In this document: positions 15,032 to 29,235 of the stretch, piece after piece
Position numbering within the stretch: the first letter of the stretch is position 1
Layout: every line of letters begins with the position of its first letter
Made by a program: the position numbers and the translations under genes
The notes under the pieces: model-generated
Seen by the model: only the letters and a program-made list of their open reading frames with translations
What the model was told of the DNA's origin: nothing
The model's database searches: none
NCBI RefSeq assembly: GCF_000025925.1
Contig: NC_014033.1
Span: 660,001-692,000 of the forward strand
Reading direction: 5' to 3'
Length of the DNA: 32,000 nt
Source: Xylanibacter ruminicola 23
GTDB lineage: Bacteria > Bacteroidota > Bacteroidia > Bacteroidales > Bacteroidaceae

Positions 15032-15035
15032 AGGC

Positions 15036-15500
15036 TTAAATCGTTAAATCCTGTTCCTCTTTCAATTTCAATCCGATGGCAAAGGCTTCGGCCATAATAA
15101 GGATAAAAATACCCTCGGCTGCGATAGTAATACAACTTCCCCAGGTTTCAATCAGATTATCTGTTTCTGGCGTCATCACTGCAGCTAATACAGTAGGCAC
15201 AATAATGCTGCACCAACCTGCAATGCGTAGTAGCGATACATTATCCCATGTAAACACTTCGCCTTGATTCACACAAAGAATAAAACGGATAAAGCAGGCG
15301 ATGGCGTATAAACCAACCAAAAAGCATATGAGTACTGTAAACATACACAATATGCCATAGCCGCCCATAGGTTCGTGGTTGTTTGCACCTTCCTCCCAGC
15401 CTCGGTGGAAATCGTCTGCACCAGCTACACAACTTAATACAAAGCTGGCAATCATCAGCACCAGCAACAAAATACAGAAGCAATTCAGTTTCTTTTTCAT
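15036..15500 (-). CDS. DUF2975-like small membrane protein
   Basis: 154 aa with 4 TM segments, immediately upstream of the YozG-like regulator (4-nt gap). Confidence 0.65.
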   Translation of the reverse strand: MKKKLNCFCILLLVLMIASFVLSCVAGADDFHRGWEEGANNHEPMGGYGILCMFTVLICFLVGLYAIACFIRFILCVNQGEVFTWDNVSLLRIAGWCSIIVPTVLAAVMTPETDNLIETWGSCITIAAEGIFILIMAEAFAIGLKLKEEQDLTI

Positions 15501-15504
15501 AACA

Positions 15505-15610
15505 TTTATCGTTTTAATTTGTTTATTTATCGTTTATCGATATGCAAAAGTAGAAATTAAATCAATACCAACCAAATAAAAACGATAAAAACTTATCGAA
15601 AAACGATAAA
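15505..15610. promoter_or_regulatory. Candidate operator set: TTTATCGTT x2 and the inverted AACGATAAA x2 flanking the -7 box (15545-15552, TACTTTTG on the minus strand)
   Basis: TTTATCGTT at 15505 and 15526. AACGATAAA at 15581 and 15602. Each pair is spaced 21 bp, and extra half-sites TTATCGA occur at 15534 and 15593. Confidence 0.45.
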
Positions 15611-15625
15611 TTTAACTTTCTATAA

Positions 15626-16489
15626 CTAAATATTCCCCAAATACACATGCTTGATGCCTTCTTCTTCGGCTATCTGCTTGGCAGCATATAGTGTCTGACG
15701 AGGGGTAGGTGGGGTATCTTGCATTTTATAGCGAGGGAAGAATCGGCTAAAGTGCAATGGTGCTTCGGATAAGCCATTATCTTTCATCCATTTGCACATT
15801 TCTTTAATCATCTGTATATCGTCGTTGATGCCTGGAATCACCAGGTTGGTTATCTCTAACCAAACGCCAGCATCACGCATAGCCAGAATGGTGTCGAGTA
15901 CAGGTTGCAGATGGCCGCCACTCACACGCTGGTATATACTTTCGCTAAACGATTTTAAATCTACGTTGGCGGCATCAAGATAAGGTAGCAGATGGCTCAG
16001 TGGTTCCTGGCAAACATAGCCAGCTGTAACCAATATGTTCCAGAGTCCGGCTTCGTGGGCTTTTCGGGCTATATCTGTAATGTATTCGATATAGGTGAGC
16101 GGCTCGGTGTAAGTATAGGCGATGCCTGGACAATGGTGCTTTTGGCATAGTGCTACCACTTCGCTAGGTTGTAGCTCATAGTAGTTCACATCTTGTGATG
16201 AAACCTGCGATATCTCGTGATTCTGACAGTTTAAGCAACGGAAGTTACATCCTGTACAAGCTATGGAGAGACATGTAGTGCCTGGATGAAAATGGTAAAG
16301 CGGCTTCTTCTCTATCGGATCGATGGCCAGCGAACAAGGCTTGGCATACACCTCGCTCACCAGCGTGCCGCCATGATTCCGTCTACTGCGGCAGATACCC
16401 GTTTGGCCATCGCTTATCTTACAGTGATGCGGACATAGTTCGCATTCCACTCGTCCATCCTCCAATCGATGATAATATCTGCACTCCAT
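15626..16489 (-). CDS. amrS: AmmeMemoRadiSam system radical SAM enzyme
   Basis: MECRYYHRLEDGRVECELCPHHC N-terminus and the radical SAM motif CNFRCLNC. The start is moved from 16543 to the ATG at 16489, which overlaps the upstream stop (TGATG). Confidence 0.85.
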   Translation of the reverse strand: MECRYYHRLEDGRVECELCPHHCKISDGQTGICRSRRNHGGTLVSEVYAKPCSLAIDPIEKKPLYHFHPGTTCLSIACTGCNFRCLNCQNHEISQVSSQDVNYYELQPSEVVALCQKHHCPGIAYTYTEPLTYIEYITDIARKAHEAGLWNILVTAGYVCQEPLSHLLPYLDAANVDLKSFSESIYQRVSGGHLQPVLDTILAMRDAGVWLEITNLVIPGINDDIQMIKEMCKWMKDNGLSEAPLHFSRFFPRYKMQDTPPTPRQTLYAAKQIAEEEGIKHVYLGNI

Positions 16490-17883
16490 CAGAAAACTAT
16501 TGCTTCGTAAACATACAATTCTGCATCGCGCCATCCATCCCAACCTATGCCAGCCTTATCTTGTGCACAATGCCCTATGAATTCTTCTTTAGTCCAGTTC
16601 ACCTCATCGGCTACTTGTGGAAGGAAAGTGCCGCTACGATAACCTTTCTTAATATAGATGCCATGATGATGCAATTCAAACTCGTCGATATTCTGTATGC
16701 GGCGCATAGGTGTGAGCACAGAAATCTCGATGTCGATATCAGTAAGTTCATCACTGGTTACAGGCATAAATCGTGGGTCTTCGAATGCTGCAGCACGAGC
16801 CATCTTGGCCACAATCTCATGTAGAGCAAAATCCTCGCCAAAGTGCCCTATACAACCACGCAATCGTCCATGTTTGTGCAGCGATACAAAGGCTCCGCAT
16901 TTCGAATTGAGAATGGATGAGCGGATTGGTTGCTGTGCGATAGGCTTACCGTCAAGGGTATCTTTAATGCTTTGAAAAGCGATGTCCTTCAGCGCTTTCT
17001 TGTCGTCATCAGAAAGAGCGAAACTTGTGTTGTTACGCAGGATGGCGAACGAATGATAGCCCACCACACGACTAAGGTCGCGATTGTCGATATCGCCAGA
17101 GTTCTGATACATCAGGTGCTTAACGTCGTATCTACTATCTATCATCAGCATTAACGTAACGATGGCAAATTCACCGCATGCACTCGTTGCCAGATTGCGC
17201 TTGCCGCTATTTGCATTGGCTTCGATGGCGGCAATAAACTCCTCTACATCGCCTGTTTCGATGGCTTTGCCTGTTTTTGCATCCACCTCGTAGGCATCTT
17301 GGTACGATGGATAATGCGAAAAATCACTGCTGATTACAAACAGATTCTCGTCAGTAAAATACGGTTTCAGCACATCGGCCATCCGTTTAAGTTTGTAATA
17401 GTCGTTGGTCGAAATGATGATAGGTACTATTGGGGGCACTTCGCCCAGTTTGCGCTGCAGAAATGGCAGTTGCACCTCCAGACAATGCTCTTGCGCATGA
17501 GCCGAACGGTGATAGGCGAAAATGCTATCAGCCTTAGTCAGTTCGATAGCTGTTTCGTGGTCCACTTTTACATTGCCAAGTGGTGTGGCGTAATAGTCGG
17601 CCTCGGTGTTTACCGATGCACCATTAAGCCATTCGTGATGGCTGGGACCTAACAAGAAAATGCGTTTGTATTCTTTCTTGGCATCAATCGTCATATAGGC
17701 CGATGCTGCCACATTTCCAGAGAAATAGTAGCCAGCATGGGGTACAATGAGTGCTGCCAGATTATCGTAAACCTGACTGTTGTGCTGTTTTAGTAGGCTA
17801 TCCACCTCATTCTCAAGCTCTTCTGCATCGCCCGTGTAAAAGCGGTTGGCCTGTGTGGCTGGTCTTACTTGTCCTAATTTCAT
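16489..17883 (-). CDS. Fusion of AmmeMemoRadiSam protein B (MEMO1-like) and protein A (AMMECR1 domain)
   Basis: The N-terminal ~280 aa are Memo-like (VPHAGYYFSG, FVISSDFSHY). The C-terminal ~180 aa are AMMECR1-like (GAFVSLHKHGRLRGCIG, ISVLTP). Confidence 0.85.
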   Translation of the reverse strand: MKLGQVRPATQANRFYTGDAEELENEVDSLLKQHNSQVYDNLAALIVPHAGYYFSGNVAASAYMTIDAKKEYKRIFLLGPSHHEWLNGASVNTEADYYATPLGNVKVDHETAIELTKADSIFAYHRSAHAQEHCLEVQLPFLQRKLGEVPPIVPIIISTNDYYKLKRMADVLKPYFTDENLFVISSDFSHYPSYQDAYEVDAKTGKAIETGDVEEFIAAIEANANSGKRNLATSACGEFAIVTLMLMIDSRYDVKHLMYQNSGDIDNRDLSRVVGYHSFAILRNNTSFALSDDDKKALKDIAFQSIKDTLDGKPIAQQPIRSSILNSKCGAFVSLHKHGRLRGCIGHFGEDFALHEIVAKMARAAAFEDPRFMPVTSDELTDIDIEISVLTPMRRIQNIDEFELHHHGIYIKKGYRSGTFLPQVADEVNWTKEEFIGHCAQDKAGIGWDGWRDAELYVYEAIVF

Positions 17884-17887
17884 GTCG

Positions 17888-17895
17888 CAAAGATA
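17888..17895 (-). promoter_or_regulatory. -7 box (TATCTTTG) for the AmmeMemoRadiSam operon
   Basis: The box ends 4 nt before the ATG at 17883, giving a leaderless-type arrangement. Confidence 0.45.
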
Positions 17896-18019
17896 GCAAT
17901 AATCTCCATATCATCCTAATATTTTCGCCATAAAGTTTTGAACTTCCTACTTTTTTATTTTCTTTTGTCGGTGAACTTGTCTCAGTCTTCTTAAGAGATG
18001 ACTGCAGTCCTGATACTAA

Positions 18020-18055
18020 ATGACTCGAGTCCTTCCTAAGGAGGACTCGAGTCAT
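18020..18055 (-). terminator. 36-nt near-perfect palindrome (14-bp perfect stem); possible terminator of the 143-aa gene
   Basis: atgactcgagtcct ... aggactcgagtcat. There is only a weak T-run after it on the minus strand. Confidence 0.4.
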
Positions 18056-18079
18056 CAATAAGGAGGACTGGAGCGGGGA

Positions 18080-18511
18080 TTAATCGTTCCAGTTCAGTTT
18101 CTCTACATAAGCATCAAACTTTAGCTCTTCGTGGCCGATGGCTTTAAGGGCATCTTCAATTTGCTTGATATCGCTGGGTGAACAGAGTTGGGCACCCTTG
18201 CGACGTTCGAAGTAAGGATTACGACCAAACTTGCCCTGCAGTCGATACATAAACGTCTGGTACTCATCGGGTAGCATCTTCTTCTGCATGTTCTTAAAGC
18301 CTTTTCCATAAACCTGAGGCTTATCATCGCGATAGTATTCGCAACCTTCGCCAGTTTGGGTTAGCTGTGGATTCAGAATTGTTACTGCTGTCAGGTTGCT
18401 AGGCAAGTTCTGCATAGCCAACTGGCGCAAACAGTGGTCAGCCATCTTGCAATCTGCCTTGATGCAATGCAGATAGCAGCCAGGAACTTCATCGTAATTA
18501 ATCTTGCTCAT
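18080..18511 (-). CDS. Cys-rich hypothetical protein of Bacteroidales mobile elements
   Basis: The start is moved to the ATG giving MSKINYDEVPGCYLHCIKADCKMADHC (a cluster of 4 Cys). The track's GTG start at 18544 lies inside a repeat motif. The protein is adjacent to the VirE-like gene. Confidence 0.6.
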   Translation of the reverse strand: MSKINYDEVPGCYLHCIKADCKMADHCLRQLAMQNLPSNLTAVTILNPQLTQTGEGCEYYRDDKPQVYGKGFKNMQKKMLPDEYQTFMYRLQGKFGRNPYFERRKGAQLCSPSDIKQIEDALKAIGHEELKFDAYVEKLNWND

Positions 18512-18533
18512 AAATAGTTTTGTTATTTTTGTT

Positions 18534-18635
18534 AAACCTCTCACTCAAATACACTGAAAGTCGCATCTGTAAAGGAGTTGAGGCTTATGAGAGGTTTGTG
18601 TAACCTCTCACTATACCTCTCACTCAACCTCTCAC
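18534..18635. repeat. Left array of the GTGAGAGGTT motif (5 copies, including one hairpin pair)
   Basis: AACCTCTCAC at 18534, 18602 and 18626. ACCTCTCAC at 18615. The opposite-orientation TGAGAGGTT at 18588 forms a 9-bp stem with the 18602 copy. Confidence 0.85.
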
Positions 18636-18646
18636 TTTTTTCATCG

Positions 18647-19858
18647 TCATGCTGCATCAACAGGCACCACATTGTAGTATTTTACATGTCCGCGCTCAGT
18701 ATGCTCAAAGCCCAGATCTTTCATCGCCAATCCCAGATGCACCTTGGTGCTAACGGTCTTTTTAAGCGAAGGATACTCCTTGCTAATCAACTCCAGCATC
18801 TGCGTGCAGTTCATTGCTTTTACCTTCTCGCCTTCGTTAGGTTTGCGGAAACATGCCTCAATAATCTCTGTAATGTCCTTTTCGTCGGTATAGTTCTGGT
18901 TCAGCTCCTGAATACGTGCCACCTGCTCGTTGGTAAACCAGTAAGGTGCCTTCAACTCGTTCACCTCATACACCAACTGAGCATATAGCTGCTCGTAATC
19001 AATCTCACCAGCATTGTCGATATACTGCCCATCAGGAATCTCAATACAGATGAATCGACGACTACCTGTTACATCCGACAAGGGATGGGGATTGTTGGTA
19101 GTGGCCACGAACGATGCATAACGAGGGCGATCCTGCTGCGAACTGCCATAAATAGTACGTCCGTTAACCTTGATTTTCGAGAGCGTCTGCTTCAAGGCCG
19201 CCTGCTGACTGGGGCGGATGGCATCCAACTCGTCTAGGTTCACCAGCAGGTTGTTAGTCAAGGCCATCTCCTTATCGAACTTGTTTGATAGGTTCAGATG
19301 GTCGAGATAATACTCCTGTAGTTCAGGAGGCAGCAAGCGCGCTATGAAGGTTGATTTGCCACAGCCCTGTGAACCAATCAACGTGGGCACACTCTCGTTG
19401 GCGTGCAGCTTATCCTTCTGCAACCAATGCGCCACAGCCGAGCGGAACCAGATAATCAGGAAGTCCAACTGCTCGCTGCTAATGCCAGGCAAGCGGCTGA
19501 ACAACTTGGCCAGATGATTCTGCCCGTCCCATTTGGGCAGTTGCGATAGAAACTCGCTGATAGGATTGTACACGGGCGTTGCATCCGAGTAGATTACCTC
19601 CTGGATATCAGTCTTAGGACTGTTTTTGGTAATCTGCTCCTGCTTAGCCTTGCGAACGATGCTGTTCAGGGCTTCAGGTGTTAGCGTTCGCCAAACAGAC
19701 TGATTATCAGTCTGTTTGGTAGTCAAGATTAGATACTCTACCTTACCGTTGAGAATGTTTCGACGGAACAGGTAATTGTCAGTAAGGAACTGCTCAACCG
19801 CGAGCGAGTTCTGCAGAGAGGCTCCTAGAGACTCTCCGTTAATTGTCATTTTATTCAT
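18647..19858 (-). CDS. VirE/VapE-family P-loop NTPase (primase/helicase-associated protein of mobile elements)
   Basis: 403 aa with Walker A GSQGCGKST and Walker B LLVNLDELD. The overall resemblance is to Bacteroidales virulence-associated-E / DUF3874-type proteins. Confidence 0.75.
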   Translation of the reverse strand: MNKMTINGESLGASLQNSLAVEQFLTDNYLFRRNILNGKVEYLILTTKQTDNQSVWRTLTPEALNSIVRKAKQEQITKNSPKTDIQEVIYSDATPVYNPISEFLSQLPKWDGQNHLAKLFSRLPGISSEQLDFLIIWFRSAVAHWLQKDKLHANESVPTLIGSQGCGKSTFIARLLPPELQEYYLDHLNLSNKFDKEMALTNNLLVNLDELDAIRPSQQAALKQTLSKIKVNGRTIYGSSQQDRPRYASFVATTNNPHPLSDVTGSRRFICIEIPDGQYIDNAGEIDYEQLYAQLVYEVNELKAPYWFTNEQVARIQELNQNYTDEKDITEIIEACFRKPNEGEKVKAMNCTQMLELISKEYPSLKKTVSTKVHLGLAMKDLGFEHTERGHVKYYNVVPVDAA

Positions 19859-19950
19859 AAGTTGTTATCAGTTTATAATTAATAATTTCTGTTATGTGCA
19901 CTTTTCATACTCACGTATGTCTTTGTGTACGGTTTTTGCTATTGCGCTGG

Positions 19951-19958
19951 CAAAGGTA
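19951..19958 (-). promoter_or_regulatory. -7 box (TACCTTTG) for the VirE-like gene
   Basis: Reverse complement of caaaggta, about 90 nt upstream of the ATG. Confidence 0.45.
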
Positions 19959-20038
19959 CAAAATTTAAAAGGCGGTTTCAAGTCTTTTGTGTTAAATTTT
20001 TGTTAAATTACCCAATTGTTAAAATCGAGTGAGAGGTT

Positions 20039-20139
20039 GAGTGAGAGGTTAGGTGAGAGGTTTGCCCAACCTCTCATGTCTCAAAATCCCAGTGTTTATG
20101 CACCTTTCGCCGCATTTGAGTGAGAGGTTGATATCTTGC
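20039..20139. repeat. Right array of the GTGAGAGGTT motif (5 copies); mirror image of 18534-18635
   Basis: GTGAGAGGTT at 20039, 20051, 20063 and 20130. The inverted AACCTCTCA at 20078 forms a hairpin with the 20063 copy. Confidence 0.85.
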
Positions 20140-20222
20140 CATTAAATGTGCGTGTGTTTCTGTAATGTTCTCCATAAAATCAAGTTTTCTGTCTAAAGTT
20201 TGGAACTTTCGGCTTTTTTATT

Positions 20223-20230
20223 TACTTTTG
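20223..20230 (+). promoter_or_regulatory. -7 box (TACTTTTG) for the MNT/HEPN pair
   Basis: TAnnTTTG match 21 nt upstream of the ATG at 20252. Confidence 0.45.
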
Positions 20231-20251
20231 CAAGCGAAATACATATTTGAT

Positions 20252-20545
20252 ATGGGAAAGGATGAATGTATCAAACTGCTGAAGAAGTATATGACTATAC
20301 TTAAAGAAAAGTATGGTATAACTTCTTTGTCTCTGTTTGGTTCTACTGCACGTGGAGAGCAAACGGAGCAGAGTGATATAGATCTGTTTGTAGATACGCA
20401 AACACCAAATCCTTTCTTGCTGCAGGATGCTAAAGAGTTCTTGGAAAAAGAAACAGGAACCTCCGTTGATATTATCCGCAATCATCAAAACCTTAACCCA
20501 CGATTAAAAAAACGTATCTTAAAAGATGGAATCTTTATCTTCTGA
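20252..20545 (+). CDS. Nucleotidyltransferase-domain antitoxin (MNT / MntA-like)
   Basis: The GSTARGEQTEQSDIDLFV motif (GSxxRG...DxD). The start is moved to the ATG at 20252, downstream of the promoter box. Confidence 0.85.
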   Translation: MGKDECIKLLKKYMTILKEKYGITSLSLFGSTARGEQTEQSDIDLFVDTQTPNPFLLQDAKEFLEKETGTSVDIIRNHQNLNPRLKKRILKDGIFIF

Positions 20546-20915
20546 AAGCAAGGGAATAGCATTAGATATTCTTGAAGACATTCTTTCGGCTATCGAGAGG
20601 CTTGAAGATCGTACAAAGGATGTGCAAACTATAGATGATTTTCTATGTTCGTCTTCTGGTATGGTATTGCTTGATGCTACATGTATGCTGCTGATAGCAA
20701 TAGGCGAGAGTCTTAAGAATCTTGATAAGACTACAGACGGTAAACTTCTTCCTACATATCCTTCTATTCCTTGGAAAAACGTGAAAGGTATGAGGGATAT
20801 TATTGCTCATCATTATTTCGATGTTGATGCATCCCAAATCCTATGGATAATCAAGAATGAGATTGCTCCATTAAAGACCGCTATCCAGTTCTTTATTGAT
20901 GAGTTGAAGAAATAA
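20526..20915 (+). CDS. HEPN-domain toxin (DUF86 / HepT-like)
   Basis: The GMRDIIAHHY motif (Rx4H), a 20-nt overlap with the MNT gene, and 129 aa. Confidence 0.85.
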   Translation: MESLSSESKGIALDILEDILSAIERLEDRTKDVQTIDDFLCSSSGMVLLDATCMLLIAIGESLKNLDKTTDGKLLPTYPSIPWKNVKGMRDIIAHHYFDVDASQILWIIKNEIAPLKTAIQFFIDELKK

Positions 20916-21143
20916 CTTTGGAACCAAATTCCTTCCGCCGAAATGGTAGAGTAGCACCGTAATCGGTTTAGCAAATCATTTCTGCGTTTTTTTTGAGACG
21001 TTTATCCTGTATCATTATCGCAAAGCTGTCACTTTATTTTTGGATGAGGCTAGATAATCAACTTTAAAACTCTTTTTTATTAAAAACAATATATATTCGA
21101 AAATAGCGTTATTTTACAAAATATAAAACAAGTAAAAATGTAA

Positions 21144-22784
21144 CTAAACTTCTTTAGATAGTAATTCTTTGGTCAGAATTTCATCAATTCGGTCTAAGTC
21201 CCAATATGGAATTTCAATAAGTCGAATGTCGTTGTCTTTGCTGTATTTACGTAGATAACGGTCGCGATGTTGTTGAACGGTGAAGTTACGGATACGACCT
21301 TTATAATAAAAGTCAATGTCTTCATAATGCTGCTCACCGTGAAATTCTATTATAATATTATGGCCATTGTAGCTTGGCAACCAAAAGTCGGCAGAGAGAT
21401 ACTGCAATGGCAGCGTGGGGTCGTTATTGGGGATAGGCTGTTCTTGGATGAATTCGATAATGTCGTGTTTCTGCAACCAACGACGTACCTCTGCTTCGCC
21501 CATAGACTCTTTAAACTCTGCAGCACAAAGGGGGCATGAACCATTGACGGTTCGTAAATTGTTGTCAGGAGTAGTTTGAAACCAATGGTCATGTATGCAG
21601 CATCGAATCCAAATTAGGCTGTCATTGTTCACATAATCCTCATGGGCACGACAATAATCATAGCGATTTTTTCCGTACTTTGCTTCGCATTGGGCAATCC
21701 ACTCATCGCATCGTTGTAATGGCGGTTTTTTGTTGGGATAGTTGGCGCACTTGGGACATCCACATCCTTGACTTACATGGACGTCATAGCGCTGTTTCTG
21801 TAGTCCATGCTCCTTACAGATATAGTGTATGTAGTCTGCCTTCGTTCTTGGCGGGACACCTACGTATTGGAATTTGTCGCCATGAACTGCTTGCGCATTC
21901 TTTATCCAGTCGGCAGGCCAGAATTTTCCATTGCAGTAGTCGCAACCCTTACCATCGAGCCACCATTTTGCATCATGTATTATCTTACCGTGCTTGGCAC
22001 AAGTGACGCTTATCTTAGTATGCACAGAAACTTTACGCTTACGTTCAAAGGAGAAATCATTATTTCGATATATGATGTTTACACGTCGATAGAATTCTTT
22101 GGCGGTTAGTTTTGGATTATCCTTGGGGGCGGGTATTCCACAGCATTTCCAGCAACCGTGAGGAGGTCGTTTATAGTCTCCTTTGCTTATACCAACAAGG
22201 AGTATTCTTGGTTTTATCTCAAAAATGCCATGGTCTCGACAAATCAAAGTCACATTTTTATCGTTGCCTTGATAGTCGACGAGTGAGGTATCTAACTGGT
22301 CTCCATACATGTTATGTACGCGCTCTATAAAGCGGGCTTCCTCAAAGCTCTTACCATGCCAATGTTGTAGGTAGGCTTCTTTTTCTCGTTTTTTAGCTTC
22401 TTTTGCAGCTTTTTCTGCGGCAATTTGCATTGGAGTCTTTGCTTTCCTAGATGATATGGCTTGTATTCTCCCTACACGACTATTCTTTTCACATAACTTG
22501 AGATATTTATTCCAATCTTTGCCGTAGTCTGTTTTGTGAGTTATCTCAGCCCTACATATAGGACAGCCTGTTGGCGTAAATGTACCATGTGGCTTCATTA
22601 TATGGTTTTGCGCCATAGCTACACGAAAATGATAGTCATGTTTGGGACAATATATGATTATCGGTTTTTTTCCGCCATCATATACACTCTCTGAATAGTC
22701 ATATCGGTTCCCCCATATCTCATGAGCCTGCTCAATATAACGAGCTAGAGACTTTGTGTTGTCTGGAATATTGCTATTTTTCAT
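21144..22784 (-). CDS. Protein with five tandem zinc-ribbon modules and a C-terminal Vsr-like / PD-(D/E)xK endonuclease domain (homing-endonuclease-like)
   Basis: Five repeats of the pattern (Y/H)G..(Y/F)DY...x...C..HG.x(10-25).GC..C. The C-terminus (EAEVRRWLQKHDI...ADFWLP...IIIEFHGEQHY...RLIEIPYWD) matches the phage/bacterial nuclease family with the IEYDGxQH core. Confidence 0.7.
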   Translation of the reverse strand: MKNSNIPDNTKSLARYIEQAHEIWGNRYDYSESVYDGGKKPIIIYCPKHDYHFRVAMAQNHIMKPHGTFTPTGCPICRAEITHKTDYGKDWNKYLKLCEKNSRVGRIQAISSRKAKTPMQIAAEKAAKEAKKREKEAYLQHWHGKSFEEARFIERVHNMYGDQLDTSLVDYQGNDKNVTLICRDHGIFEIKPRILLVGISKGDYKRPPHGCWKCCGIPAPKDNPKLTAKEFYRRVNIIYRNNDFSFERKRKVSVHTKISVTCAKHGKIIHDAKWWLDGKGCDYCNGKFWPADWIKNAQAVHGDKFQYVGVPPRTKADYIHYICKEHGLQKQRYDVHVSQGCGCPKCANYPNKKPPLQRCDEWIAQCEAKYGKNRYDYCRAHEDYVNNDSLIWIRCCIHDHWFQTTPDNNLRTVNGSCPLCAAEFKESMGEAEVRRWLQKHDIIEFIQEQPIPNNDPTLPLQYLSADFWLPSYNGHNIIIEFHGEQHYEDIDFYYKGRIRNFTVQQHRDRYLRKYSKDNDIRLIEIPYWDLDRIDEILTKELLSKEV

Positions 22785-22895
22785 ATCGACCTAGTCAGTG
22801 ATCATTATTTATTCATATAGCATCATCAAATAATTATCAGAATAATCCCTTGTTATTTCTCTAAACTTTAATTAGGCATAACCCAGTATTTTCTG

Positions 22896-22903
22896 CAAAT
22901 ATA
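22896..22903 (-). promoter_or_regulatory. -7 box (TATATTTG) for the 546-aa nuclease-like gene
   Basis: Reverse complement of caaatata, about 110 nt upstream of the ATG at 22784. Confidence 0.45.
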
Positions 22904-22975
22904 CGAATAATAATCGAATCTGCAAAATCTGCTGATATTTTTGGATAGATATTTGTAAATTTCAAAACAATTTTG

Positions 22976-22983
22976 TACTTTTG
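22976..22983 (+). promoter_or_regulatory. -7 box (TACTTTTG) with an upstream TTTG at 22952-22955; divergent promoter for the 139-aa gene
   Basis: TAnnTTTG plus a -33-like TTTG with a 20-nt spacer. It leaves a ~110-nt leader before the ATG at 23100. Confidence 0.5.
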
Positions 22984-23099
22984 CGCCCAGAATAAGCATC
23001 AAGAGTGGCATAATGCACACCAACCGGCCTACACAGAATCGTTGGCAGCGGTGGTAAAAGGATGCGAGTGAATGTTTAATCCACTAAAGATAAACGATT

Positions 23100-23519
23100 A
23101 TGGAAATCAAGAAGATTGAAAAGAGTGACTTTGTAATGTATCCACGTATGCAACATCGTGGGTTGGAGTTCAGGCATGTAGAACGTGATGCGTTTAAGGC
23201 AGAGTTGCGCCATGTTGAGGAACATGGTGACTATTGGCTGATTCATCAGCAGTCGAAGCCTCATGTTGTGGCCCACGTCCAATTACCCAAGACGGAAGCA
23301 GAGTTTGATAATATCCTTGGCTGGTGTTTGGGACAAAACCATTGGTGCGAGTACATTGAGGGGGATTTCTCTTTCCTCTGTGTTATAGCAGGCTTCAATG
23401 CTGCAGAACTCACTCCTAAATACCCAGACTTTATCAGCGAACGTGTTTATGCTCTTGGTGATGCTACTCGCTGGTGGTATGAGTATGGAAAGGATGTTCT
23501 GATACAAAAGACAACATAA
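23100..23519 (+). CDS. Hypothetical protein (139 aa)
   Basis: ORF with an ATG start behind its own promoter. No family is recognised. Confidence 0.55.
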   Translation: MEIKKIEKSDFVMYPRMQHRGLEFRHVERDAFKAELRHVEEHGDYWLIHQQSKPHVVAHVQLPKTEAEFDNILGWCLGQNHWCEYIEGDFSFLCVIAGFNAAELTPKYPDFISERVYALGDATRWWYEYGKDVLIQKTT

Positions 23520-23566
23520 GGATATCAGATTATTCTTTGAAAATGGCTATGATAAGATTTTTTTCG

Positions 23567-23574
23567 TATATTTG
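23567..23574 (+). promoter_or_regulatory. -7 box (TATATTTG) for the DUF4041/T5orf172 gene
   Basis: TAnnTTTG match 25 nt upstream of the ATG at 23600. Confidence 0.45.
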
Positions 23575-23599
23575 CAGCATCATTTAAAAGATTCTGATT

Positions 23600-25288
23600 A
23601 TGGCAATATTTGATTTTCTAAAATCCCACGAAGAAAAAGTAAACGAGAGAAAAGCAGAAATAGCAGCTTTGCAGCAACAAGTTGTTTCTTTACGTGACGA
23701 GGTGGCTTCTGAGGAGAAAGAAAAAGAAGAGTTAAGAAGTCAGATTGTTGAATTGAAGAATCTTGTTGTGGCTCAAAAGAATGAACTATATGATTTGCAA
23801 CAGGACAAAGAAAAAACAAAGAAGCAAGTTGATAGCCTTCATGAAAGATATGAAAAGTTGCATGCTTTGTTAACGAGATCAACCAGAAAATTAAATTGTA
23901 TGGAATCTTCTGATGAATTCTTGTTATTTGACGTTGGATCTCCATATTTGGTTGCGTTGGATGAAGTAGATTATGAAGAATTGTGTAAATATCACAATCT
24001 TAGAGAAGAAAATCATTCTTATTATGATAAGAAGAAGCAAAGAGAGGATGAATTACATGCCATAGAGCTGAAAATTGAAGATGCAAACAAAGAACTAACC
24101 AATCTTCGAGAGGAATTGGTAAAACAGCGTGATATTAATTATGCCTATGAAATAAACAATATTAAAGAACAAACTAGTGAATATATTCATGAATTGAATG
24201 ACATAAAAGCAGATATTAATAGTTATCTGAAAAATCATAAAGACAAGATTCGCTTAGAGGTAATACATGAAATATACCAAAGAGCAAATCTTTGTGAAGA
24301 TGAGGCTTTGAGAAATTTGCGAGAAACTATTGACGGTGTTAATATTGACCAGATACAACTTGCTTTGGATTTAAAGAAAATGTTGTTGAAACCTCCATAT
24401 AAAGTTAATCCACAGGAATGGACTTTTGCTGAAATATATTTGTGTAATTTGTTAAATGAATTTGCACAACTCAATATTGTTAAAATCATAAAAGAAATGA
24501 AAAACTCAGATTGGGATACGATTAAAGTCAAAATAGGTTCTCTTGTTAATATTTTAGAATTGCGTATGATTGGAACGGGATTTCGAATAGATCCATCATA
24601 TGGAAAGAATCTATTCAATTATATGGAAGCAAAGTATTTATATATACAAAAGCAACAGATTGAACGAGAAAAGGAGCGAGAAGAACGTGAGGCACAACGT
24701 GAATATGAGCGTGCTATAAAAAAGGCTCTAAAAGATGAAGAAAAGGCACAAGAGGCTCTTGAAAAGAAGAAAAGAGAAATGGCAGAAGCGCAGACTCAGG
24801 AAAAGATACAGAAATTGCAGGAACAGATAAAGGGACTGGAGAATGCTCTTGTTGAAGCTCGTGAACTAAGAGAGAGAGCAATGAGTATGGCACAACAAAC
24901 TAAGATAGGCTATGTTTATGTTATCTCTAATATAGGTTCTTTTGGAAAAGATGTCTATAAGATTGGAATGACTCGTCGATTAGACCCGATGGAGCGTATT
25001 ATGGAATTAAGTAACGCTAGCGTTCCATTCCCATTTGACGTACACACCTTTATATATAGTGAGGATGCACCAGCATTGGAGGCAGACTTACATAGAAGAT
25101 TCGATGCCAAGAAGGTTAACTCTATAAACTATCGCAAAGAATATTTCAATGTGACGTTAGATGAAATAAAAGCGGCATTGAAAGAGAAAGGAGTTGATGC
25201 AAACTTTGTAGACGAACCTGATGCATTCCAATACAGAGAAAGCCTTATGAAAAATCGCGATGGTATTCTCTCTACAATACAGCAGTGA
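23600..25288 (+). CDS. Coiled-coil DUF4041-type protein with a C-terminal T5orf172 / MUG113 (GIY-YIG-superfamily) domain
   Basis: The N-terminal and central regions are long E/K-rich heptad coiled coil. The C-terminus (GYVYVISNIGSFGKDVYKIGMTRRLDPMERIMELSNASVPFPFDVH...YFNVTLDEI) is the T5orf172 signature. Confidence 0.8.
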   Translation: MAIFDFLKSHEEKVNERKAEIAALQQQVVSLRDEVASEEKEKEELRSQIVELKNLVVAQKNELYDLQQDKEKTKKQVDSLHERYEKLHALLTRSTRKLNCMESSDEFLLFDVGSPYLVALDEVDYEELCKYHNLREENHSYYDKKKQREDELHAIELKIEDANKELTNLREELVKQRDINYAYEINNIKEQTSEYIHELNDIKADINSYLKNHKDKIRLEVIHEIYQRANLCEDEALRNLRETIDGVNIDQIQLALDLKKMLLKPPYKVNPQEWTFAEIYLCNLLNEFAQLNIVKIIKEMKNSDWDTIKVKIGSLVNILELRMIGTGFRIDPSYGKNLFNYMEAKYLYIQKQQIEREKEREEREAQREYERAIKKALKDEEKAQEALEKKKREMAEAQTQEKIQKLQEQIKGLENALVEARELRERAMSMAQQTKIGYVYVISNIGSFGKDVYKIGMTRRLDPMERIMELSNASVPFPFDVHTFIYSEDAPALEADLHRRFDAKKVNSINYRKEYFNVTLDEIKAALKEKGVDANFVDEPDAFQYRESLMKNRDGILSTIQQ

Positions 25289-25470
25289 AAAGTATAGATA
25301 TTAGTAGATGGCTATAGTTGGGTGAAGTTGATAGGGGATTTTCTTTGGACCTGGTGGCGGAAAGATTGTAATTATCGATAACGTCGTATATGGGAGTGCT
25401 GTAAATAAAGAATTGCTTGAAGCCAAATGGTTGACTGGTAGATACATTGAGAATTTCCCACAAGTTGTGG

Positions 25471-25492
25471 AAAAATGTGAGAATTAACTCAC
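25471..25492 (-). terminator. Weak hairpin plus U-run downstream of xpt
   Basis: On the minus strand: gtgag ttaatt ctcac, followed by attttt. The stem is only 5 bp. Confidence 0.3.
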
Positions 25493-25509
25493 GTCGCTTA
25501 CTATACCGT

Positions 25510-26088
25510 CTATTCTCGAAACTTGATGGTTTGGGTTTCGTAGTTCATCTCTTCGATGATGGCGAGGGATTCCAGGTGGTAGCCTTCTTCACGAAGTATG
25601 CGACCGCCATTCTGGTTGCCCTTTTCTACGGCGATACCAATGCCTGTTATTGTGGCACCTGCCTGGCGGGCGATGTCGATAAGGGCGTGAACAGCTTCGC
25701 CTTCGGCAAGGAAATCATCTACTATCAGCAGATGGTCAGAAGCTGAGAGATAGGGGGCTGAAACAAACACCATGTTCTGCTTCTTATGGGTAAAAGAATA
25801 GGCGTGCGACATGTATTTGTCGTCGCTGCTATTGAGTGTCTGGCTCTTCTTAGCAAACACTACGGGCACATCAAGACTGTTGCCAAGCATAGTGGCAATG
25901 GCTATGCCGCTGGCTTCGATGGTGAGAATCTTGGTAATCTTGGTGTCTGCAAACCTTCTCTTGAACTCCAGGGTAATAAACCGCATCACGTCCATCTGAA
26001 TCTGATGATTGAGAAAACTGTCAATCTTCAGAATATTACCAGGTCTGACCTCACACTCTTGAAGGATTTTCTGTTCTAGATAGTTCAT
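25510..26088 (-). CDS. xpt: Xanthine phosphoribosyltransferase
   Basis: 192 aa starting MNYLEQKILQE...ILKIDSFLNHQ, with the PRPP-binding loop LLIVDDFLAEGEA. Confidence 0.9.
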   Translation of the reverse strand: MNYLEQKILQECEVRPGNILKIDSFLNHQIQMDVMRFITLEFKRRFADTKITKILTIEASGIAIATMLGNSLDVPVVFAKKSQTLNSSDDKYMSHAYSFTHKKQNMVFVSAPYLSASDHLLIVDDFLAEGEAVHALIDIARQAGATITGIGIAVEKGNQNGGRILREEGYHLESLAIIEEMNYETQTIKFRE

Positions 26089-26089
26089 A

Positions 26090-26125
26090 AAAACACAAAA
26101 AGCCCCACCTTAGCGGTGAGGCTTT
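26090..26125 (-). terminator. Intrinsic terminator after pheS
   Basis: On the minus strand: gcctcacc gctaa ggtggggc (8-bp stem, one mismatch), followed by tttttgtgttttt. Confidence 0.5.
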
Positions 26126-26135
26126 AATTATTATT

Positions 26136-27194
26136 TTAGTTTGCTGATTCGAATTCTTCGAGGAATCGGGTGTCGTTCTCAGAGAACATACGGAGGTCGC
26201 TGACACGGTACTTGAGGTTGGTGATACGCTCAACACCCATACCGAAGGCATAACCGGTGTACTCCTTTGAGTCGATGCCGCAGAGCTCGAGCACGTTAGG
26301 ATCAACCATACCGCAACCCAGAATCTCTACCCAGCCGGTGTGCTTACAGAAGCCGCAGCCCTCGCCACCACAGATAAAGCAAGAGATATCCATCTCGGCA
26401 CTGGGCTCGGTGAATGGGAAGTAAGATGGGCGCAGACGAATCTTGGTGTCGGCACCAAACATCTCCTTAGCGAACGAAAGCAGAACCTGCTTCAGGTCGG
26501 TAAACGATACGTTCTTATCGATATACAAACCTTCTACCTGATGGAAGAAGCAGTGTGCACGGGCGGTGATGGCCTCGTTACGATATACACGACCTGGACA
26601 GATAACGCGGATAGGAGCAGTAAGCTTGCCGTTCTCGTCGTGCATGTGCTCCATCACACGAGCCTGAACACTTGATGTGTGCGAACGCAACAGGATATTC
26701 TTGGTAACATCGTTAGGATGCTGCGATACAAAGAAGGTATCCTGCATATCGCGTGCGGGGTGATCGGCTGCAAAGTTCATCTTGGTAAAGATGTGGTTAT
26801 CATCCTCAACCTCAGGACCATCGGCGAGCACAAAGCCCATACGCGAGAAAATATCGATAATCTCGTTGGTTACGATTGTAAGTGGATGGCGTGTACCCAG
26901 CTCAATGGGGTAGGGTGTGCGGGTAAGGTCGAGAGCCTCTTCGCCTCCCTCCTGGGTTTCGCACTCCTCGCGCAACTGATTGATGCGCTCGGTGGCCAGT
27001 GTTTTCAGTTCGTTAATCTTCATGCCGACAGTTTTTTTCTGATCGGCAGCAACCTCGCGGAAGTCGTTCATCAGGGCTGTAATCTCACCCTTCTTGCTCA
27101 GATATTTCAGTCGGAGCTGCTCAACTTCCTCTGCGTTTTTGGCGCTCAAATTCTGTACTTCTTTCAGAAGTTCGTCTATCTTATCAAGTATCAT
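26136..27194 (-). CDS. pheS: Phenylalanine--tRNA ligase alpha subunit
   Basis: 352 aa with an N-terminal coiled coil and class II motifs (HPARDMQDTFF, FRNEA-like YRNEAI, GFAFGMGVERI-like GYAFGMGVERI). Confidence 0.95.
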   Translation of the reverse strand: MILDKIDELLKEVQNLSAKNAEEVEQLRLKYLSKKGEITALMNDFREVAADQKKTVGMKINELKTLATERINQLREECETQEGGEEALDLTRTPYPIELGTRHPLTIVTNEIIDIFSRMGFVLADGPEVEDDNHIFTKMNFAADHPARDMQDTFFVSQHPNDVTKNILLRSHTSSVQARVMEHMHDENGKLTAPIRVICPGRVYRNEAITARAHCFFHQVEGLYIDKNVSFTDLKQVLLSFAKEMFGADTKIRLRPSYFPFTEPSAEMDISCFICGGEGCGFCKHTGWVEILGCGMVDPNVLELCGIDSKEYTGYAFGMGVERITNLKYRVSDLRMFSENDTRFLEEFESAN

Positions 27195-27221
27195 AAACTA
27201 TAAAAATTGCAATTTTGCGTG

Positions 27222-27229
27222 CAAAGGTA
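27222..27229 (-). promoter_or_regulatory. -7 box (TACCTTTG) for pheS
   Basis: Reverse complement of caaaggta, 27 nt upstream of the ATG. Confidence 0.45.
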
Positions 27230-27304
27230 CTTATTTTTTGGGATAAAAAGAACAAAAGAACAGAAAAAAGTTTGTTCTTGTGTACTTATATCTAAAAAAA
27301 TGTG

Positions 27305-27312
27305 TATCTTTG
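27305..27312 (+). promoter_or_regulatory. -7 box (TATCTTTG) for the lipoprotein-murB-MBL operon
   Basis: TAnnTTTG match 48 nt upstream of the ATG at 27361. Confidence 0.45.
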
Positions 27313-27360
27313 CCGAAATTTTGAGAGAAATTAGAAAGATTAGGGTACTACATTAAGTAG

Positions 27361-28200
27361 ATGAAAAGGTTTTTTATCGCGATTTTCGCAACGGTACTGA
27401 TCATGTTCTCATGCACAGGGAACAAAGCCAATCAGACAGAAGAGGTGCCAGCCGATAGTGTGGCTGACTCTATTGACACCACGGATGTTGACTCGATGGA
27501 GATGCTGATTACAGAAACTCCAATGCCAAGAGCTGCTGATGCCATGTTCGACGATTTCTTGTTTAACTTCCTGGCTAACAAGAAATTACAGAAGGAACGC
27601 ATTGTTTTTCCACTCAGAGTAACGGAAAACGGCAAAACCACCACAGTTGAGAAAGCTAACTGGAAGATGGAACACCTGTTTATGCGTCAGGGGTACTATA
27701 CCTTATTATTTAACGACGACAAGCAGATGCAGCTGATGAAGGATACGGCCGTGAGCGAGGCTGTAGTAGAAAAAATTCTGCTTTCGAAGAATCAGGTAAA
27801 GAACTACGTGTTCCAGCGTATCAAAGGCGCATGGCTGTTGCTCGAAATCAGAGTTACGCCACTGCAGGCTGATGCTAACTCATCGTTCTTGAGTTTTTAT
27901 CGCCGATTTGTAACGGATAGTGCTTTCCAGGTAAAGAGCCTGAGCGAAACGGTGGATTTTGTGGGGCCTGATCCCGACGACGACTTTAACATGATGGAAG
28001 GTGTGATTACACCTGATACATGGGAGGCTTTTGCACCAACTCTGCCTCATAAAACCCTGTACAACATTATTTATGGTAAGCCACAGCCAGAGGGTAAACA
28101 GAAGATTTATCTGCTGCGGGGGGTAGCTAACGGACTCGAAATGGAGTTGCGCTTTAGAAAAGAAGGTGGCAAATGGCTGCTGAAGAAAATGATGACGTGA
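27361..28200 (+). CDS. Putative lipoprotein (possibly DUF4348-like)
   Basis: Lipobox-type signal MKRFFIAIFATVLIMFSC. The family name is from memory only. Confidence 0.65.
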   Translation: MKRFFIAIFATVLIMFSCTGNKANQTEEVPADSVADSIDTTDVDSMEMLITETPMPRAADAMFDDFLFNFLANKKLQKERIVFPLRVTENGKTTTVEKANWKMEHLFMRQGYYTLLFNDDKQMQLMKDTAVSEAVVEKILLSKNQVKNYVFQRIKGAWLLLEIRVTPLQADANSSFLSFYRRFVTDSAFQVKSLSETVDFVGPDPDDDFNMMEGVITPDTWEAFAPTLPHKTLYNIIYGKPQPEGKQKIYLLRGVANGLEMELRFRKEGGKWLLKKMMT

Positions 28201-28204
28201 GTTT

Positions 28205-28238
28205 AGTTGAGAGTTGAAAGTTGATAGTTGAAAGTGAG
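28205..28238. repeat. 5 x 7-bp tandem heptads AGTTGAN spanning the murB start region
   Basis: AGTTGA at 28205, 28212, 28219 and 28226, then AGTGAG at 28233. The period is exactly 7. Confidence 0.8.
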
Positions 28239-29235
28239 AATAGAGAAGGATTATAGTCTGAAGCAACATAACACATTTGGTATTGAGGCTAAGTGTGCAC
28301 AGTTTGTGGAGTATAGCAGCGAGGCTGAAGCCAAAGAGGTGGCTGAGTTGCTGCGTAACACGCGCGTACCTTATATTATAATAGGTGGTGGCAGTAATCT
28401 GCTGTTAACTCGCGATTACGAGGGTATCGTGGTTCACTCTGCCTGCAAGGGTATTGAGCGCCATGGCAACCGCTTGGTGTGTGGTAGCGGCGAGGTGTTC
28501 GACGATGTAGTGGCCCAGAGTATTGAAATGGGACTTTATGGGGCCGAGAACCTGTCGTTGATTCCTGGCGATGTGGGTGCGAGCGCTGTTCAGAACATCG
28601 GTGCTTATGGTGCTGAGGCTAAGGACTTGATTCGTAGCATTCGTGCTGTTGAGATTGCCACAGGAAATGTGTGCGTGATTGAGAATGCTGAGTGCGAATA
28701 TGGTTATCGTCAGAGCAAGTTTAAGCACGATTGGAAGAATCAGTTCCTGATACTGAGCGTAGAGTACGAATTTGCAGCTACGTTCGAGCCCCGATTAGAC
28801 TATGGTAATATACGTGCCGAGCTGGTGAAGGAGGGCATCAGCCTGCCTACTGCCCAGCAGTTACGCAATACGATTATCCGCATACGTGAGGCCAAGTTGC
28901 CCGATCCCAAGGTGCTGGGCAATGCAGGCAGCTTTTTTATGAACCCCATTGTGGGGCGCCAGAAATACGAGGCGTTAGCTACCCAGTACGAAGGTATGCC
29001 GCATTACGATATCGATGCCGATCATGTAAAGATACCTGCTGGCTGGATGATTGACCAGTGTGGTTGGAAAGGCAAATCGATGGGTAGGGCAGGCGTACAC
29101 GACAAGCAGGCTTTGGTGCTGGTAAATCGTGGTGGCGCAACAGGTCAAGAAGTAGTGGCACTTTGCCAGCAGATTCAGGCCGACGTGAAGCAGAAATTTG
29201 GTATCGATATCTATCCGGAGGTGAACGTGATATGA
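28228..29235 (+). CDS. murB: UDP-N-acetylenolpyruvoylglucosamine reductase
   Basis: FAD-binding GGGSNLL and a typical MurB C-terminal domain. The start is uncertain: TTG at 28228 or GTG at 28234, with no ATG nearby. Confidence 0.9.
   Translation: MKVRIEKDYSLKQHNTFGIEAKCAQFVEYSSEAEAKEVAELLRNTRVPYIIIGGGSNLLLTRDYEGIVVHSACKGIERHGNRLVCGSGEVFDDVVAQSIEMGLYGAENLSLIPGDVGASAVQNIGAYGAEAKDLIRSIRAVEIATGNVCVIENAECEYGYRQSKFKHDWKNQFLILSVEYEFAATFEPRLDYGNIRAELVKEGISLPTAQQLRNTIIRIREAKLPDPKVLGNAGSFFMNPIVGRQKYEALATQYEGMPHYDIDADHVKIPAGWMIDQCGWKGKSMGRAGVHDKQALVLVNRGGATGQEVVALCQQIQADVKQKFGIDIYPEVNVI

Follow-up and report, generated by a model that had tools for sequence, protein, structure and literature searches.

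The locus described here lies on the chromosome of the rumen bacterium Xylanibacter (Prevotella) ruminicola 23, within a stretch of 32,000 nt (contig NC_014033.1, positions 660,001 to 692,000) that we call the window and whose coordinates are used throughout. In the window, an accessory segment of 7,540 bp (17968-25507) separates the Memo-AMMECR1/AmrS operon, on its promoter side, from the 3′ end of xpt; the segment is strain-specific as judged by blastn against the six closest relatives. An earlier note, made from the letters alone, had listed seven genes there, and gene calls together with domain searches confirmed all of them (Table 1). The defence or selfish cargo that it suspected can be named as a PD-Lambda-1 gene, an MntA/HepT-like pair and genes for a homing-endonuclease-like and a VapE-like protein; the remaining two genes encode a DUF6078 protein and a protein of 139 aa. 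What the note had missed is an S-adenosylmethionine (SAM)-I/IV riboswitch in front of the 139-aa gene. With a probability of roughly 70%, we consider the segment to be a real strain-variable defence island in a recombination hotspot, that is, a mosaic of at least five modules and not one element.

Table 1. Features of the accessory segment and its borders (window coordinates).
Feature	Coordinates	Strand	Evidence and remarks
amrS	15626-16543	-	
Memo-AMMECR1 fusion	16489-17883	-	
Direct repeat, left copy (box 1), 46 bp	17922-17967	+	Repeat search; last bases common to genomes without the island
DUF6078 Cys-rich protein, 143 aa from ATG	18080-18511	-	Pfam PF19555, E 3.2e-31; public gene call also 143 aa
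Left repeat array, AACCTCTCAC(T) units	18535-18636		Repeat search; left arm of a 50-nt inverted repeat around the VapE open reading frame (ORF)
VapE-like P-loop NTPase (SF3 helicase-type), DUF3874 C-terminus	18647-19858	-	Pfam PF05272 4.9e-36, PF19263, PF12990
Right repeat array, GAGTGAGAGGTT units	20027-20131		Repeat search; right inverted-repeat arm, upstream of VapE
Direct repeat, right copy (box 2), 46 bp	20185-20230	+	Intact promoter box TTTG-N20-TACTTTTG before the MntA/HepT pair
MntA-like nucleotidyltransferase (MNT) antitoxin, 97 aa	20252-20545	+	Pfam NTP_transf_2 (PF01909) 1.4e-14, Polbeta; PADLOC PDC-S09 1.7e-22
HepT-like HEPN RNase toxin	20526-20915	+	Pfam PF01934 2e-19
Homing-endonuclease-like protein, 546 aa, free-standing	21144-22784	-	PHROG 559 5e-64; DUF723 zinc ribbons and Vsr-like/PD-(D/E)XK C-terminus
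Promoter -7 box (TACTTTTG) of the riboswitch transcript	22976-22983	+	Motif search
SAM-I/IV riboswitch aptamer	22991-23101	+	Rfam RF01725, 54.5 bits vs gathering score 41.1
139-aa protein, narrow rumen Prevotellaceae family	23100-23519	+	284 homologues; AlphaFold2 (AF2) predicted local distance difference test (pLDDT) 88.3
PD-Lambda-1-type defence protein, 562 aa	23600-25288	+	PADLOC PDLC03977 3.9e-90, PDLC03976 3e-88, residues 296-553
Right junction	25508-25510		blastn; at the xpt stop codon (xpt 25510-26088, -)
pheS	26136-27194	-	

Relatives were gathered by scanning one genome per species with the Memo-AMMECR1 protein, which gave 80 loci, and the window was compared by blastn with the six closest. 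On the left, homology to MA2016, D31d, RUG14568 and RUG126 (L001, L002, L004 and L005) ends at 17967; on the right, it picks up again at 25508 in MA2016 and D31d, which keep xpt there. The alignment with island-free relatives that the earlier note had proposed thus defines exact junctions, 17967/17968 and 25507/25508, no more than 20 bp away from the interval 17950-25490 that had been estimated. The segment is accessory: rather than being conserved in all relatives, it is missing at the same site in the four genomes just named. No repeat pair was found at 17968 and 25507, the ends of the whole island. Contig BPTT01000001.1 (GCA_019973335.1) is 100% identical to window 11144-32000.

Base composition divides the segment in two. 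GC content is 0.481 in the left flank (1-17967) and 0.466 in the right flank (25508-32000), and it drops to 0.374 over 20185-25507, with a minimum of 0.29 at 24001-24500. Among 139 flank windows of the same 5,323-bp size (mean 0.484, standard deviation 0.012) none lies below 0.457, which places this stretch about nine standard deviations under them. The left part (17968-20184, DUF6078 and VapE), at 0.456, is not AT-rich; by module, the values are 0.487 for VapE versus 0.342 for PD-Lambda-1. The fall in GC that had been estimated by eye, from about one half to about one third, is real, with the figure of one third slightly overstated, and the idea of a single AT-rich island over 17950-25490 holds for 20185-25507 but fails for the left 2.2 kb, so that the segment is not one compositional unit.

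Pfam detected no integrase, recombinase or transposase domain in the seven island proteins and ARAGORN no tRNA or tmRNA in the window, as had been concluded before; in the region of the window examined there was likewise no integrase, excisionase, capsid or transfer gene. The broader statement that integration machinery is not visible is correct for integrases and transposases, but leaves aside the homing-endonuclease-like protein, a possible agent of mobility. Promoter -7 boxes of the Bacteroidetes type (TAnnTTTG) precede five of the seven genes (VapE, MNT, the 546-aa gene, the riboswitch/139-aa gene and the T5orf172 gene, which is PD-Lambda-1). The two genes without a box of their own, DUF6078 and HepT, are each the second gene of an apparent operon, which agrees with the suggestion of one promoter box per transcription unit. 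The neighbouring Memo-AMMECR1 operon also has a TAnnTTTG box.

The contents of the slot change from genome to genome. MA2016 has a peptidase C1 gene there and D31d an ORF of 88 codons without a Pfam match. Prevotella sp. P6B1 carries the same DUF6078-VapE module (homology to window 15623-20243 only, at 92% identity), followed by wholly different cargo: AbiEii/DUF6922, a Schlafen-like helicase and an SF1 helicase. RUG295 has the VapE module in inverted orientation, across the operon from its place here. The island is also found, at 97% identity, in the rumen metagenome contigs L091 and L092; there, 59 bp take the place of 20132-20801 (L091 6293-6353 and L092 4022-4082 are the matching sites), so that the promoter box and MNT are gone and HepT, having lost its first two thirds, is left as a 3′ remnant. 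Genome L143, which is more distant, has the riboswitch gene beside xpt together with a PD-Lambda-1 homologue, and a GIY-YIG gene replaces the 546-aa gene. Since P6B1, RUG295, L091/L092 and L143 share different parts of it, we read the island as a mosaic in a hotspot and not as one unit. Of the two alternatives left standing by the earlier note, a hotspot that gathers cargo fits better than one decayed element, given the independent inheritance of modules in P6B1, L091/L092 and L143. We regard the junctions, the accessory status, the module-wise presence and absence and the domain identities as established.

Five modules may be distinguished in order. The DUF6078 and VapE-like genes (module A) would most likely have entered by recombination at the slot's own promoter box, an intact copy of which would drive the MntA/HepT type VII toxin-antitoxin cassette (module B). 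The free-standing homing-endonuclease-like gene would form module C, the SAM-I/IV riboswitch joined to the 139-aa gene module D, and PD-Lambda-1 module E.

Module A is enclosed by two imperfect copies of a 46-bp direct repeat, 80% identical to each other, and the earlier claim that flanking direct repeats are absent is therefore wrong for this left module. A 33-bp core pattern of the repeat has two matches in the window, both at these copies, versus none expected. Box 1 is a degenerate Bacteroidetes promoter box: the TA of its -7 element is lost, and there is no gene for it to drive. The empty site of D31d holds a single copy, with a left flank like that of copy 1 and a core like that of copy 2 (97% over 36 nt). 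P6B1 (L003) has three copies, at 7647-7694, 9929-9953 and 13710-13746, and its xpt has been relocated to the far side of the amrS operon, beside the third of them, so that the box coincides with rearrangement breakpoints. We also considered that the box is a mere generic Bacteroidetes promoter and rejected it, since the core occurs only twice in 32 kb and the generic pattern TTTG-N19-TAnnTTTG lies at three other sites.

The VapE-like protein, also labelled DUF5906, has Walker A (GSQGCGKST) and Walker B motifs in its translation and matches PHROG families of DNA helicases and primases (best E 4.6e-47). Its ORF is flanked on both sides by inverted arrays of iteron-like units of 11-12 nt. RUG295 has the same array architecture (L006 12985-13047 and 14428-14495) with every unit changed to AGTGAGGTGTT, a concerted change of the kind expected for protein-binding iterons that co-evolve with their binding protein. 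We read the module as a predicted small replication-protein cassette of mobile origin. At its DUF6078-distal end (18022-18065) there are two tandem 22-nt units, each with a palindrome centred on CTCGAG; this tandem arrangement is kept in RUG295 (L006 12390-12433), where the surrounding sequence is different.

In module B, the MNT and HepT genes overlap by 20 nt and their translations contain the catalytic motifs GSxxRG...SDID and Rx4H (as RDIIAH), respectively. MntA is matched at 2e-12 in NCBIfam, and the pair scores 46.9 and 25.2 bits where the equivalog cut-offs are 60; by these profiles it is a family-level relative of MntA/HepT and not an equivalog. The PADLOC run that had been suggested recognised MNT as a candidate system, PDC-S09, along with PD-Lambda-1, and these two and the HepT-like toxin are the recognised defence genes of the island. 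The PD-Lambda-1 protein ends in a T5orf172/MUG113 (GIY-YIG-like) domain (Pfam PF13455 1e-18 and PF10544 9.6e-17; PHROG 1847 3.3e-91) and probably begins with a coiled coil, judging from weak matches of coiled-coil type (HAP1_N, ATG16, JetC) over residues 7-224; the promoter box of its gene is at 23567. It had been described as a DUF4041/T5orf172 protein, of which the T5orf172 part is borne out, whereas Pfam reported no DUF4041 at E <= 0.01. Rather than a candidate for a new system, it is a member of the published PD-Lambda-1 system.

The 546-aa protein of module C, identical to an X. ruminicola protein, matches further PHROG families (681, 1.1e-35; 9084, "homing endonuclease", 2.5e-17; 7140, 7.7e-11), and the families it matches are annotated as HNH, homing or intron-encoded nucleases. 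Our own Pfam scan gave no significant match; precomputed assignments place PF05265 (DUF723), with repeated treble-clef zinc ribbons, in all 120 of its listed homologues. A model of the last 147 residues (pLDDT 84) has as its best compact fold matches, all weak with E > 0.001, the catalytic domain of I-Bth0305I (probability 0.96, template modelling score (TM) 0.48/0.69), Vsr (TM 0.45/0.48) and the DUF559-like NGO0050 (TM 0.43/0.63). Thus, of the "Vsr-like nuclease" with zinc ribbons that the earlier note saw here, the ribbons are confirmed and the Vsr-like part is plausible, not proven. The protein may be called homing-endonuclease-like, and it is a possible mobility agent. A group I intron around its gene was also looked for, and Rfam gave no match for one in 17800-25700.

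The riboswitch of module D ends on the start codon of the 139-aa gene, and its aptamer keeps nearly all strongly conserved positions of the RF01725 consensus. RF01725, the SAM-I/IV class (Weinberg et al. 2010, PMC2864571; riboswitch classes are reviewed in PMC5473149), was also matched in all seven other loci tested (48.7-60.1 bits), one of which is a prophage. The riboswitch sequence motif is present in at least 78 of the 83 loci with enough upstream sequence, and in the DNA alignment of loci the 110 nt or so 5′ of the ATG are more conserved than the ORF itself. In an alignment of 63 distinct leaders, the five specified helices are paired in 96.3% of cells, versus 29-52% for slid controls; five pairs change on both sides, and most pairs are invariant. 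The 3′ tail AACGATT (23090-23096), directly before the ATG, matches AATCGTT of the P3 loop as its complement, so that the two could form a putative pseudoknot; this complementarity is kept in 94.5% of cells of the same alignment. A loop-tail pseudoknot is a feature of the SAM-IV and SAM-I/IV classes. An expression platform based on a transcription terminator was dropped, there being no hairpin with a U-run between aptamer and ATG. Because the loop-tail pairing is so well kept and no terminator-like hairpin follows the aptamer, we infer a translational OFF switch: with SAM bound, the P3 loop would pair with the 7 nt that precede the AUG, and this pseudoknot would hide the start region, and the 139-aa protein would be made only when SAM falls.

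Some copies of the riboswitch depart from this plan. About one third have an extra GC-rich hairpin of some 33 nt (GGCGCTTCGC...GTCGAAGAACC) in the P3 loop (alignment columns 47-93; for example, L084 7852-8006 and L100 4511-4658), and L084 still scores 48.7 bits, above the Rfam threshold. Two loci keep the 139-aa gene and have lost the 5′ half of the riboswitch (L125, around 70-199) or nearly all of it (L161, around 1040-1172); these would be natural "constitutive" variants.

The 139-aa protein has 284 homologues in a large database, 70-93% identical and none of them annotated; the family comprises 112 representatives at 50% clustering, about 18 of them full-length distant members. As 72% of the substitutions among 85 homologous genes fall at codon position 3, and the AF2 model has the pLDDT given in Table 1, we take the ORF to encode a real protein. 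The earlier note had rightly flagged this product as an unknown of interest: it had no match in Pfam, NCBIfam, PHROGs or PADLOC, in a profile search of Protein Data Bank (PDB) sequences, or by tblastn in 50,697 phage and 72,556 plasmid records, and Foldseek found no fold match in PDB or BFVD (best TM < 0.4, E > 0.04). The only conserved residues are P15, R16, G21, G43, P54, F69, D70, L73, Y85, F92, G98 and W125/W126, a pattern that suggests a binding protein more than an enzyme; the product is presumably a defence-island accessory of the binding or adaptor type and not an enzyme of metabolism. One copy of riboswitch and gene lies in a prophage (L171 9891-10411, IMG/VR viral genome UViG 2561511222_000002), moron-like between an amidase and a tape-measure protein of 1,347 aa; this prophage also has an integrase.

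A metagenome scan with the 139-aa family added 80 loci, mostly from rumen, and in all, about 90 rumen contigs and one prophage contain the riboswitch-gene pair, which nearly always borders variable defence cargo on the cargo's 5′ side. In three unrelated contexts, the 139-aa gene leads different restriction or defence clusters. Where at least 600 bp of downstream sequence was available (76 loci), the next ORF is on the same strand in 58 loci, at a median gap of 99 nt, and the first downstream proteins belong to 50 different clusters. The annotated cargo includes SspB (DUF4007) with SspC, BrxP, an HKD-Snf2/DrmD-like protein, type IIG and MmeI-like enzymes, Dcm and N6 methyltransferases, a type III-like ResIII with methyltransferase and GmrSD, MutH with Dcm, a type IV restriction enzyme, AAA_15/21 ATPases, Schlafen-type helicases, Cas6, and NOV_C with SLFN; PD-Lambda-1 is found downstream in eight loci and in the window. 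By class, the systems beside the pair include restriction-modification (RM) types I-IV, bacteriophage exclusion (BREX), Ssp, Cas6 and PD-Lambda-1. None of the annotated neighbours is a gene of methionine or SAM metabolism. The loci share DNA homology from about 22938-22996 to about 23490-23500, a point shortly before the ORF ends, which marks the riboswitch gene off as a discrete conserved unit that borders variable cargo on its 5′ side. The riboswitch is tightly linked to the 139-aa gene, and the pair sits at the edge of highly variable defence cargo elsewhere as well. Directly downstream of the riboswitch gene and convergent with it, six loci have HIRAN-domain proteins of three clusters (L098 5221-6978, L101 3474-4430, L111, L112 5381-6898, L126 and L148).

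On the upstream side, nucleases of the homing type come and go. Directly upstream, and often divergent, there are GIY-YIG genes in ten loci, DUF723-plus-nuclease proteins in two loci and the window, short DUF723 proteins in three loci and HNH_3-domain (HNH-type) proteins in two. This amounts to a presence/absence polymorphism, with four endonuclease types at this position in 17 other loci and none in others. Other minus-strand genes recur upstream, namely clusters c10 (about 394 aa), c4 (about 310 aa) and c1 (about 210 aa), with a PLD/Rep_3 protein in L085; loci with this upstream backbone are L085 (1-7400), L093, L097, L105, L106, L111, L123 and L126, and no informative Pfam or PHROG match was obtained for clusters c10, c4, c1, c36, c11 and c45.

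It is reasonable to suppose that homologous recombination swaps the cargo by way of conserved flanks, a part played by the core genes, the promoter box and the riboswitch gene, and that the neighbouring homing-type nucleases supply double-strand breaks that aid the exchange. Such a process needs no integrase, which would explain why none is present. An integron-like attC system was considered as well and dropped, as there is no recombinase and no repeat at the cassette borders.

Two other explanations of the segment have to be weighed against a mosaic. Local compositional noise, or core genes of odd composition with no island at all, could be suspected from other short GC dips in the window (1501-2000, 8001-8500, 27001-27500 and 31001-31500); with the segment missing at the same site in four relatives and its AT-rich part so far below the flanks, this view is already refuted by blastn, and we give it practically no credence. 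The decayed remnant of a single integrative element that has lost its integrase, be it a satellite similar to phage-inducible chromosomal islands (PICI), an integrative mobilisable element or a prophage, has more in its favour: the phage-type helicase-primase matches of the VapE-like protein, the iteron-like arrays on both sides of its gene, the 46-bp repeat on both sides of its module, the recurrence of VapE-like genes near the riboswitch gene in other contigs (L084-L087, L088 and L126) and the 139-aa homologue inside a bona fide prophage. We nevertheless hold it to be unlikely. The direct repeats enclose only 17968-20184 and leave out the AT-rich half; GC content sets the two halves apart, as does their separate inheritance (P6B1, L091/L092 and L143); RUG295 has the VapE module beyond the operon; and the genes expected of such an element, from integrase to transfer genes, were not met in the region examined.

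As to what the riboswitch module may do, we propose, as a speculation, that the pair is a mobile immune sensor-effector that takes the SAM level as a proxy for SAM-lyase attack or failing methylation, with the released protein guarding or tuning the neighbouring, largely SAM-dependent defences, and that its extreme sequence conservation may also make it a landing pad for cassette swaps by homing nucleases and recombination. Its central part, the sensing of an attack on SAM, is itself doubtful: a phage SAM lyase or failed methylation would lower SAM, the riboswitch would open, and the 139-aa protein would act as a guard, possibly as an abortive-infection effector, a SAM-lyase inhibitor or a brake on restriction, and would protect SAM-dependent RM or BREX neighbours. 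The linkage of riboswitch and gene in nearly all copies is consistent with it, as is an adjoining cargo rich in systems with SAM-dependent methyltransferases (Dcm, N6, type IIG, MmeI-like, type III-like and BrxP/BREX), and the prophage copy resembles a superinfection-exclusion moron. Moreover, the SAM lyase of phage T3 defeats RM and BREX by depleting SAM (PMC7877911; PMC11580459). The proposal is, however, purely inferential; the neighbour in the window is PD-Lambda-1, which is not known to use SAM, the 139-aa protein shows neither a toxin-like nor an enzyme-like signature, nor any fold match, SAM also falls in ordinary methionine starvation, and the material examined gives no known SAM lyase of Prevotella phages. 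A more mundane role, in which the 139-aa gene is an ordinary accessory of SAM homeostasis or sulfur metabolism, or an anti-restriction gene of a mobile element, that hitch-hikes at the edge of the cargo, seems to us improbable as well. SAM riboswitches classically control genes of methionine and SAM metabolism, many copies share the c10-c4-c1 backbone, and in 18 of the 76 loci the next gene is on the opposite strand, all of which would suit it; the annotated neighbours, on the other hand, include no such metabolic gene, and the protein shows no similarity to known metabolic families, belongs to a narrow family linked to mobile elements and is absent from the phage and plasmid records searched. 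A role in anti-restriction or self-protection and a hitch-hiking metabolic role are, in our opinion, about as probable as SAM-attack sensing.

Several points weigh against our interpretation, both of the island as a mosaic and of its riboswitch module. The functions given for the two are predictions. The 46-bp box is also a promoter, and its duplication could be promoter reuse and not a recombination scar. For the nuclease domain, no fold match reaches significance (all have E > 0.001), and a homing target or cleavage site is only conjectural. The shared c10/c4/c1 backbone could be an undescribed mobile element, which would trivially explain the linkage. PD-Lambda-1 has its own promoter box and so need not be under riboswitch control, and we know of no need for SAM in PD-Lambda-1, type IV restriction or Ssp. 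Covariation is modest, the copies being close relatives in which most riboswitch pairs never vary. The ligand is taken from the Rfam class only, and variants of the SAM-I aptamer with unusual gene associations can sense other ligands, such as spermidine (PMC10853860).

New immune systems are sought mainly in defence islands, and this island as such is ordinary: like PD-Lambda-1, MntA/HepT and the homing-type nucleases, it is of a known kind. The 46-bp promoter box and the riboswitch gene illustrate how an island may be rebuilt without integrases. The module itself joins a metabolite-sensing RNA firmly to a small protein, and in rumen Prevotellaceae the two accompany dozens of different defence systems as well as prophages and homing nucleases. 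In the full-text literature searched we found no description of a native SAM riboswitch in a defence context, which is not proof of absence, nor of this riboswitch-controlled, defence-associated 139-aa family, which is unannotated in the libraries used. If the riboswitch does report SAM depletion, it would be a native riboswitch wired into anti-phage immunity and would directly oppose the SAM lyase, with which phages are known to counter defence; even with a mundane function, the module would be a practical marker for defence cargo in Prevotella metagenomes.

Two further features of the window lie outside the island. A second variable segment of 5.5 kb (2908-8443) is indicated by D31d (L002), which aligns only to 940-2907 and 8444-17967 in that part; one GC dip (0.386 at 1501-2000) is about 0.9 kb to the left of its 2908 edge and another (0.374 at 8001-8500) is at its 8443 edge. 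To the right, window 30097-30164 (+) matches the Bacteroidetes small RNA family FopS (Rfam RF04319, 79.2 bits vs threshold 56), and a full promoter pattern TTTG-N19-TAnnTTTG (30060-30090) lies directly 5′ of it.

Compared with known systems, most parts of the island have a recognisable counterpart. Module B resembles MntA/HepT type VII toxin-antitoxin systems in its adjacent, overlapping nucleotidyltransferase and HepT-like genes with both catalytic motifs, but it stays below the NCBIfam equivalog cut-offs, and the cassette is deleted in two island copies that are otherwise 97% identical. Module E has the single gene, the strong PADLOC match, the C-terminal T5orf172/MUG113 domain and probably the N-terminal coiled coil of PD-Lambda-1; it departs from the reference system in that the PADLOC match covers only residues 296-553, Pfam finds no DUF4041 and the host is a member of Prevotellaceae and not E. 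coli, and its activity here is a prediction. The 546-aa protein is like the free-standing phage homing endonucleases and the Vsr-like "EDxHD" family (I-Bth0305I, PDB 3r3p) in its PHROG homing, HNH and intron nuclease families, in its multiple zinc-ribbon DNA-binding repeats and possibly in a Vsr-like C-terminal fold. As with homing endonucleases, its gene stands beside highly conserved sequence, a position held in other genomes by unrelated nucleases (GIY-YIG, HNH). Unlike the phage enzymes, it is outside any intron or intein and chromosomal rather than phage-borne, with a structural match below significance.

The riboswitch agrees with the SAM-I/IV class in its score above threshold, its P1-P3 helices, its 3′ hairpin (called P5), its 3′ tail and its placement on the start codon, and differs from that class by the extra P3-loop hairpin in about one third of copies; unlike classical SAM riboswitches, it is linked to a mobile protein associated with defence islands, with a copy also in a prophage. 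BrxR/CapW-type regulators sit upstream of many different defence systems, and the 139-aa gene is comparable to them as a small conserved gene that recurs first in front of unrelated systems. The 139-aa protein, however, has no WYL or helix-turn-helix domain and no detectable homology to them, control is by a metabolite-sensing RNA, and a regulatory role is a guess. For the island as a whole, the core defence hotspots of Pseudomonas aeruginosa are the comparison case for slots with strain-variable cargo (PMC10250203). As in such hotspots and in chromosomal defence islands generally, there is a fixed slot between core genes, cargo that differs per strain, low GC and no dedicated integrase. In contrast to them, the slot is small and has a reusable 46-bp promoter box as its border on one side, and the riboswitch with its 139-aa gene forms a conserved mobile "edge" beside at least 50 different cargoes.

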